64,000 nucleotides of DNA from an uncultured Eubacteriales bacterium (GCA_964541225.1 CAZIPN010000004.1:24382-88381); one strand, 5' to 3'. Positions 3,736-3,859 are shown, counted from the first letter of the stretch. A program made the numbers and translations. The notes: generated by a model not told the origin, from the letters alone.

Positions 3736-3795
3736 CGGAAATCCGTTCGCAACATTGCGACATTTCTGTCGCAAGCGCTCACGGAAATGTCGCAA
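3736..3795. promoter_or_regulatory. candidate enhancer (UAS) for the sigma54 activator: repeated TGTCGCAA/TTGCGACA half-sites
   Basis: Perfect 8-4-8 palindrome TTGCGACA-tttc-TGTCGCAA (3755-3774). Further direct copy TGTCGCAA (3788-3795). Degenerate copy GTTCGCAA (3745-3752). CGGAAAT precedes two copies. The centre lies about 80 bp upstream of the -24 element. Confidence 0.45.
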
Positions 3796-3844
3796 TGACT
3801 CGGCCTTAACCCATAAAAACCGCAGGTCAGAGCCATATTAGCTT

Positions 3845-3859
3845 TGGCACGCCTGTTGC
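3845..3859 (+). promoter_or_regulatory. sigma54 (-24/-12) promoter of the nif operon
   Basis: TGGCACG-cctg-TTGC matches the consensus TGGCACG-N4-TTGCW exactly in the GG/GC core and spacing. It lies 64 nt upstream of the nifH ATG. Confidence 0.75.

Follow-up and report, generated by a model that had tools for sequence, protein, structure and literature searches.

A probable NifA/sigma-54-dependent nifH promoter with an everted half-site array in a putative Coriobacteriia-type actinobacterium

We analyzed a stretch of 64,000 nucleotides (the window) and conclude, with a probability of roughly 0.8, that it is likely to carry a NifA/sigma-54-dependent promoter of a nifHDK-EN-X-I1I2-fdx-B-modABC cluster in a Coriobacteriia-type actinobacterium. 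The nifH promoter is probably real and functional as a NifA/sigma-54 promoter. We infer NifA as the protein that binds the upstream array, an rpoN gene in the genome, the transcription start site, and a signal to which the GAF domain responds. The system is a known NifA/sigma-54 design in an unexpected phylum and with an N11 spacing; its main interest is taxonomic and evolutionary. We consider it an even bet that these sequences represent a lineage of uncultured high-GC Coriobacteriia with a working sigma-54/NifA nif regulon combined with NifI1/NifI2, an everted CGACA-N4-TGTCG core, and a previously undescribed AAAACCGCAGGTCAG box.

Results

A conserved -24/-12 element precedes the probable nif operon

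The features of the nif locus are listed in Table 1. For comparison with the window, we used the nifH upstream regions of relatives, giving nine distinct nifH promoters in all (window, L003, L004, L084, L087, L170, L171, L173, and L176), to which two nifB promoters (L003 and L175) were added; alignment A3 comprises eight orthologous promoters. All the relatives are metagenome assemblies and are labeled Coriobacteriia, apart from the close relative L004, which is labeled Eubacteriales.

TABLE 1 Coordinates of the nif operon, its predicted control elements, and the activator gene in the window
Feature	Position	Strand	Remarks
Site A, upstream weak site, CGGAAATCCGTTCGCA	3737-3752	+	21 bp 5' of site I
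Site I, putative core enhancer palindrome, GCGACAtttcTGTCGC	3757-3772	.	Center of the 3755-3774 palindrome; conservation 0.84
Site II, CTCACGgaaaTGTCGC	3778-3793	.	21 bp 3' of site I
Spacer box, AAAAACCGCAGGTCAG	3815-3830	+	Conservation 0.85, level with the promoter itself
Sigma-54-type -24/-12 promoter (putative), TGGCACGcctgTTGC	3845-3859	+	Sole exact match in the window; kept in all orthologues
Predicted transcription start	3870-3872	+	Some 12 nt past the GC doublet
Ribosome-binding site GGAGG before nifH	3914-3918	+	Kept in alignment A3
Probable single operon, nifH to modC	3923-15271	+	Pfam and NCBIfam scans
nifH	3923-4771	+	
nifD	4773-6224	+	
nifK	6229-7737	+	
Fused nifEN	7744-10416	+	
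nifX-like	10413-10814	+	
nifI1	10848-11165	+	
nifI2	11162-11587	+	
Ferredoxin	11589-11858	+	
nifB	11985-12899	+	
modA	12902-13741	+	
modB	13809-14486	+	
modC	14390-15271	+	
NifA-type enhancer-binding protein, 510 aa	16999-18531	-	GAF, AAA+ sigma-54 interaction, and Fis-type HTH domains (Pfam)

The window copy of the -24/-12 element, TGGCACGCCTGTTGC, has its GG at 3846-47 and its GC at 3858-59, i.e., a GG-N10-GC arrangement, and ends 63 nt before the nifH ATG (3923). Exact TGGCAC-N5-TTGC sequences are rare, with one in 64 kb against 0.14 expected. The GG-N10-GC spacing is exact in all nine orthologous nifH promoters, and the element is also present in the two nifB promoters, while the flanks have diverged. 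The columns of the element have a mean conservation of 0.82, against 0.58 for other upstream columns, and the clade form reads TGGCAC-N5-T(T/C)GC. The original prediction of a textbook sigma-54 promoter upstream of nifH stands as regards place and GG/GC spacing, but not at the position following TTGC, where a G replaces the consensus A or T. A search for sigma-70-like promoters between 3560 and 3960 returned none, and within the window the nif cluster showed no internal copy of the -24/-12 module. Given the known geometry of sigma-54 promoters, transcription of nifH is predicted to start around 3871.

The cluster pairs NifA with NifI1/NifI2, and its nifI genes lie after nifENX, not between nifH and nifD. 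In reviews of nif regulation, nifI1I2 is described as the solution adopted by anaerobes and nifA as one adopted mostly by aerobes.

Two other -24/-12-like sequences were noted in the window. The first, TGGCATtaagcTTGC at 22755-22769 (+), is a good match located in a long intergenic region, 44 nt 5' of a pirin-family gene (22813-23682); no enhancer-binding protein gene was found near it. If real, it would imply a role for sigma-54 outside nif in this organism. The second is a weak match at 50060-50046, 205 nt upstream of a molybdopterin oxidoreductase cluster.

The activator belongs to the NifA family

A GAF-AAA+(GAFTGA)-HTH activator had been predicted at 16999-18531. The domain scans confirmed it on the minus strand, 1.7 kb past modC, and its assignment to NifA passes the equivalog cut-off narrowly, with a TIGR01817 score of 533.7 bits against 528.85 (some 5 bits above); all other equivalog models for bacterial enhancer-binding proteins (bEBPs) scored far below their own cut-offs. 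The protein has the GAFTGA motif and a GESGTGKE Walker A motif, and of its 120 best homologues, 119 retain GAFTGA. It lacks the cysteine-rich interdomain linker, and no NifL was found in the window.

The HTH region of the activator, QAKAARELGVTARQLGYKVRK, matches the canonical NifA reading head. In the clade, the sequence QAKAARxLGxT[P/A]RQLGYK resembles GWVQAKAARLLxMTPRQxxY of the NifA proteins that adjoin canonical-site promoters. As the two are near-identical, the activator should read a TGT-type half-site.

The position of nifA varies among the relatives. In L084, L087, and L176 it is the divergent neighbor of nifH, which places the promoter module in their shared intergenic region, and in L089 and L175 it lies inside the nif cluster. 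In the window, the region upstream of nifA showed no TGTCG sites.

An array of TGTCG-type half-sites lies upstream of the promoter

All of the repeats first described upstream of nifH are present in the sequence. The perfect 8-4-8 palindrome at 3755-3774 is made up of TTGCGACA (3755-3762), tttc, and TGTCGCAA (3767-3774); an extra copy of TGTCGCAA occurs at 3788-3795, and the degenerate copy, GTTCGCAA, at 3745-3752. Both copies of CGGAAAT, described as a prefix of the repeats, are there as well (3737-3743 and 3782-3788), but the motif is conserved at the upstream position only, in the form CGAAAC.

These repeats can be described as three sites in a 21-bp register (Table 1). Site A contains CGAAAC and yCGCAAC blocks 11 bp apart, has a conservation of 0.78 against a background of 0.58, and, in this register, agrees with site I in 10 positions out of 16. 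Site II, whose right half is the third 8-mer, combines with the right half of site I to give TGT-N11-ACG. The array in the window reads ACA-N4-TGT-N11-ACG-N4-TGT; its first ACA lies 85 bp and the TGT 78 bp from TGGCAC.

The reported absence of the NifA upstream sequence TGT-N10-ACA also held: the 400 bp preceding nifH contain none, and the five copies in the window are all elsewhere. The same 400-bp region is devoid of it in most members of the clade.

We determined how unusual the repeats are in the window. The number of 8-mers, four against 2.7 expected, is unremarkable, but three of them fall within 41 bp, and a three-copy cluster within 60 bp was obtained in none of 500 Markov simulations. 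Perfect 8-4-8 palindromes number three against 2.4 expected, and a single one is not significant. The fourth 8-mer, at 22379, is inside a probable minus-strand ORF and was dismissed as probably due to chance.

The array is conserved among relatives

The main evidence for the putative enhancer array is its conservation across relatives rather than the statistics of the 8-mer. The 11 promoters share a module composed of a palindrome, a weaker site 21 bp downstream, the AAAACCGCAGGTCAG box, and the -24/-12 element. The palindrome, (G/C)CGACA-N4-TGTCG(C), starts 86 to 88 bp upstream of TGGCAC in 11 of 11 promoters, where an enhancer would usually lie, and CGAAAC and yCGCAAC blocks 21 bp upstream of it are common to the clade promoters. 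What is conserved in the orthologous upstream regions is the TGTCG(C) unit and not the full 8-mer.

Site I has at most one mismatch in every orthologous promoter. Its spacer is always A/T-rich, with an orientation that flips between TTTC and AAAG. The arm changes are not compensatory, which together with the flip of the spacer argues that site I is a protein site and not a hairpin. An intrinsic terminator or hairpin was rejected on these grounds and for the lack of a T-run.

In L003, L170, and L176, site II forms a complete second palindrome; elsewhere it is partial. TGT-N11-AC(A/G), 78 to 79 bp from TGGCAC, is found in six of the nine distinct nifH promoters. L004, L171, and L173 have lost the third half-site, and the everted pair and the last TGTCG remain; the sole well-kept pair in these three promoters is ACA-N4-TGT, whose orientation is opposite to that of the classical NifA site.

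In L084, a palindrome with the same half-sites and a 3-nt spacer, TTGCGACcgcGTCGCA (8913-8930), is located near the start of the divergent nifA gene. It may be a candidate site for nifA autoregulation.

A conserved box separates the array from the -24 element

The AAAACCGCAGGTCAG box lies about 28 bp before TGGCAC in the clade promoters. It is repeated at the nifB promoters (L003 8653-8665; L175 near 14943, minus strand), and its AAAACCGC part is also present in some Nitrospirota nifH promoters. Where the clade has this box, proteobacterial promoters have an IHF-like AAAACA-N4-yTTA sequence. As a textbook IHF site (WATCAA-N4-TTR), the spacer box is a poor match by eye, and that assignment was rejected. 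The box is possibly bound by a protein that bends DNA, or is itself intrinsically bent.

Discussion

The module resembles Nitrospirota-type NifA arrays

The nifH promoters of Nitrospirota and of Thermodesulfovibrionia-type organisms (L005, L010, L014, L016, L017, L100, and others) are the closest match to that of the window. They contain ACA-N4(A/T-rich)-TGT-N10-ACA-N4-TGT, with the first ACA 85 to 88 bp from TGGCAC, plus or minus about one helical turn. In position and architecture, the putative "8-mer enhancer" corresponds to this Nitrospirota-type NifA array, with one extra central base. The two differ in the center, N10 there and N11 in the window, and in the third half-site, which is always kept in the Nitrospirota type; the half-sites of the clade are GC-extended (GCGACA/TGTCGC), unlike those of the Nitrospirota type. 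The corresponding proteins are 83 to 84% (NifH) and about 58 to 61% (NifA) identical to those of the window. The module has the same design as that of Nitrospirota-type nif clusters, which suggests that they probably share a common ancestry. To our knowledge, nifH promoters of the Nitrospirota type have not been characterized experimentally.

The promoters of Proteobacteria (Klebsiella, Azotobacter, rhizobia, and Betaproteobacteria) likewise combine TGGCAC-N5-TTGC with an upstream site on the same side of the helix and have a spacer element at the IHF position, and proteobacterial NifA has the same domains, GAF, AAA+(GAFTGA), and Fis-type HTH. Their upstream site is a single TGT-N10-ACA 113 to 114 bp from TGGCAC, whereas the array in the window starts at 85 bp and has N11; the best-kept pair is ACA-N4-TGT, and the host is an anaerobe of the Gram-positive type. 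In Betaproteobacteria the sites are often TGTCG-N6-CGACA, i.e., they have the same TGTCG half-site as the window. The term "non-canonical enhancer" goes too far: the strict site is absent, but the layout and position match the extended NifA site of the Nitrospirota type, and the half-site is that of the betaproteobacterial sites.

Paenibacillus, also a Gram-positive host with a compact nif operon, has a nif promoter of the sigma-70 type controlled by GlnR, with GlnR sites TGTNA-N7-TNACA, and lacks both NifA and a sigma-54 promoter; its sigma-70/GlnR features were not found here. In reviews of nif regulation, Frankia serves as the actinobacterial case, and NifA is found mostly in aerobes. That Frankia nif lacks NifA, as had been noted, is stated in the literature, which reports the genus to be without nifA, nifL, and nifI1I2 (PMC12903952). 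Frankia comprises the only nitrogen-fixing actinobacteria that have been studied in any depth. The window has in common with Frankia the phylum and the molybdenum nitrogenase and differs from it by the NifA gene, NifI1/NifI2, and the -24/-12 promoter.

Upstream of nifH in L023 (9770-10000) and L027, the loci of Candidatus Aquicultor and an Anaerolineae MAG, the -24/-12 element is absent, and a different, conserved CCCCGTAyAAC ... AAATACTTT motif is common to both. This points to a different nif control system in these loci.

Proposed mechanism and the identity of the array-binding protein

In the proposed mechanism, sigma-54 RNA polymerase would bind TGGCAC-N5-TTGC (3845-3859) as a closed complex, and the activator encoded at 16999-18531 would bind the array of TGTCG-type half-sites centered about 80 to 105 bp upstream. 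Site I would be the strong site, flanked by sites A and II, each 21 bp away and on the same helical face. An oligomer of the activator would reach the polymerase through looping of the DNA, and the AAAACCGCAGGTCAG box may aid the bend. ATP hydrolysis via the GAFTGA loop would then open the promoter, with transcription starting near 3871.

The array might instead be the operator of another regulator, such as a nitrogen or redox repressor or a response regulator that recognizes direct repeats, with NifA acting from solution or from a different site. The missing strict NifA site and the everted half-sites of the best-kept pair are in line with this explanation, as are the CGAAAC-N5-CGCAAC direct repeats 11 bp apart, which we take to resemble sites of OmpR/GlnR-type regulators, and the OmpR-type pair encoded at 20121-21928. 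We nevertheless regard it as unlikely: the distance to the -24 element is fixed at 86 to 88 bp in 11 promoters, the array travels to the nifB promoters, and its position and layout are those of Nitrospirota arrays that include a canonical NifA site. Moreover, the TGTCG half-site is of the NifA type, and the reading helix of the activator is canonical.

The host is probably a Coriobacteriia-type actinobacterium

Among species-representative genomes, the best relatives of the window NifH are from a "Coriobacteriia bacterium" metagenome-assembled genome (MAG) and an Eubacteriales-labeled MAG (91%), and the next ones are from Nitrospirota and Thermodesulfovibrionales (83 to 84%). A scan of metagenome contigs for NifH gave, among the matches listed, identities of at most 85% and none from the clade. 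The 90% NifD cluster includes several proteins of Coriobacteriia and Actinobacteria MAGs. The NifA orthologues, 63 to 89% identical, are labeled Coriobacteriia, and the next group, at about 58 to 61%, is from Nitrospirota, Syntrophorhabdaceae, and Thermodesulfobacterium. Both of the trigger-factor homologues that bear an organism name (2/2) are labeled Coriobacteriia. NifH proteins 82 to 83% identical to that of the window were also seen in Candidatus Aquicultor, which belongs to another class of Actinomycetota, and in an Anaerolineae MAG.

The gene order of the window gave further information on the host. OW818687.1, a single-contig genome of 2.5 Mb, encodes an 80% identical NifA orthologue inside a nif cluster and has the same backbone as the window, cheB ... 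rph-rdgB ... tig-clpP-clpX-valS-folC. Gene orders of the tig-clpP-clpX-valS type are typical of Actinobacteria such as Mycobacterium. The actinobacterial synteny of the flanking housekeeping genes proposed originally is supported by the order shared with OW818687.1 and by homologues labeled Coriobacteriia or Actinobacteria. PASTA kinase and CW_binding_2 proteins, which are associated with Gram-positive lineages, are encoded in the relatives. The GC content of the window is 63.6%. A Coriobacteriia-type actinobacterium is the probable host, the class resting on the submitters' MAG labels and on synteny.

Could the contig come from outside the Actinobacteria, its label being an error of binning or classification and its host a member of a phylum with ordinary NifA and sigma-54? 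The taxonomy consists of submitters' MAG labels, with L004 labeled Eubacteriales, and the window encodes a PilB-type ATPase within a Frz/Chp-like chemosensory cluster, which is unusual for classical actinobacteria. This origin is quite improbable in our view, however, as independent submitters arrived at Coriobacteriia or Actinobacteria labels, the relatives carry the PASTA kinase and CW_binding_2 proteins, and OW818687.1 shares both the NifA orthologue and the backbone. The nif and housekeeping genes are contiguous on the same 64 kb, so that mis-binning is not at issue.

Sigma-54 in a phylum described as lacking it

According to Francke et al. 2011 (PMC3162934), Actinomycetota are without a sigma-54 system, and sigma-54 occurs or is missing together with its activators across genomes. 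A 2025 survey (PMC12316311) similarly describes the phylum as effectively devoid of sigma-54 and proposes that high GC makes the promoters unworkable. It reports rpoN in 1 of 15 Coriobacteriia surveyed, and its supplement lists two rpoN genes, with the AID-CBD-DBD architecture, in Eggerthella guodeyinii HF-1101. This organism, which was isolated from the gut and has no reported connection with nif, belongs to the same class as the proposed host, and its rpoN genes indicate that sigma-54 can exist in Coriobacteriia. The premise that sigma-54 is absent from high-GC Gram-positives is backed by two surveys but has an exception in the two E. guodeyinii genes. One paper describes nitrogenase genes in MAGs of Actinobacteria, its Coriobacteriia MAGs belonging to the order OPB41; our literature search on sigma-54 or diazotrophy in Coriobacteriia yielded nothing specific.

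Domain scans detected no rpoN in the window, and the RpoN box RRTV[ATS]KYR was not found in six-frame translations of the window and of 176 loci. The case for a working sigma-54 is an indirect one, made by a promoter and an activator that are evidently under purifying selection across genomes with activators only 63% identical and by the good -24/-12 match at 22755-22769. The surveys' finding that rpoN is essentially absent from Actinomycetota, its absence from the window and the loci searched, and the far higher conservation of NifH, NifD, and NifA than of trigger factor (in OW818687.1, 80% for NifA and 57% for Tig), which fits a mobile nif cluster, could also mean that the -24/-12 element and the activator are inactive relics of a horizontally acquired cluster, transcribed from another promoter in a host without sigma-54. 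This we consider the least probable alternative, and very unlikely, since relics would be expected to decay, yet promoter, box, enhancer, and spacing are kept across activators only 63% identical, GAFTGA is intact in nearly all of the best homologues, no sigma-70-like promoter was found upstream of nifH, a good -24/-12 match lies before an unrelated gene at 22755-22769, and at least one cultured member of the Coriobacteriia has rpoN.

If the NifA/sigma-54 reading is true, a phylum described as devoid of sigma-54 has transcription that depends on it, high GC is no barrier to promoter recognition, and NifA could read half-sites in a geometry that is not the textbook one. A functional system would extend the known range of sigma-54 and provide a natural counterexample to the GC-content hypothesis. 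The 11 aligned promoters, with a one-base change of spacing relative to their nearest relatives, would then also offer a system for studying how half-sites are read. The module is found in widespread anaerobic Coriobacteriia of the subsurface and sediments, where it is joined to the "anaerobic" NifI1/NifI2 switch, and it marks these uncultured actinobacteria as likely diazotrophs with regulated nitrogen fixation.

Other features of the window

Two ORFs of about 620 aa each, 23739-25604 (-) and 37583-39439 (-), have coding-like composition and no Pfam match. Six tRNA genes are present, at 43467-43540, at 50222-50650 (four in a tight cluster), and at 52993-53074. The chemosensory cluster at 26251-36874 (+) encodes a DUF4388 protein, CheR-TPR, CheY, the PilB-type secretion ATPase, two CheW, an MCP, a CheA-CheY hybrid, and CheB; OW818687.1 likewise has CheA-like and CheB genes. 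The molybdopterin oxidoreductase cluster at 43573-49841 (-) encodes a catalytic subunit with a TAT signal, a 4Fe-4S subunit, and an NrfD-type membrane subunit, together with one more Fe-S protein and a NarJ-like chaperone. Finally, an nhaA-I (sodium) riboswitch was matched at 57292-57342 (+) with 50 bits, the gathering score being 37. The match overlaps the annotated start of an ORF (57319-58596) whose true start probably lies further downstream.
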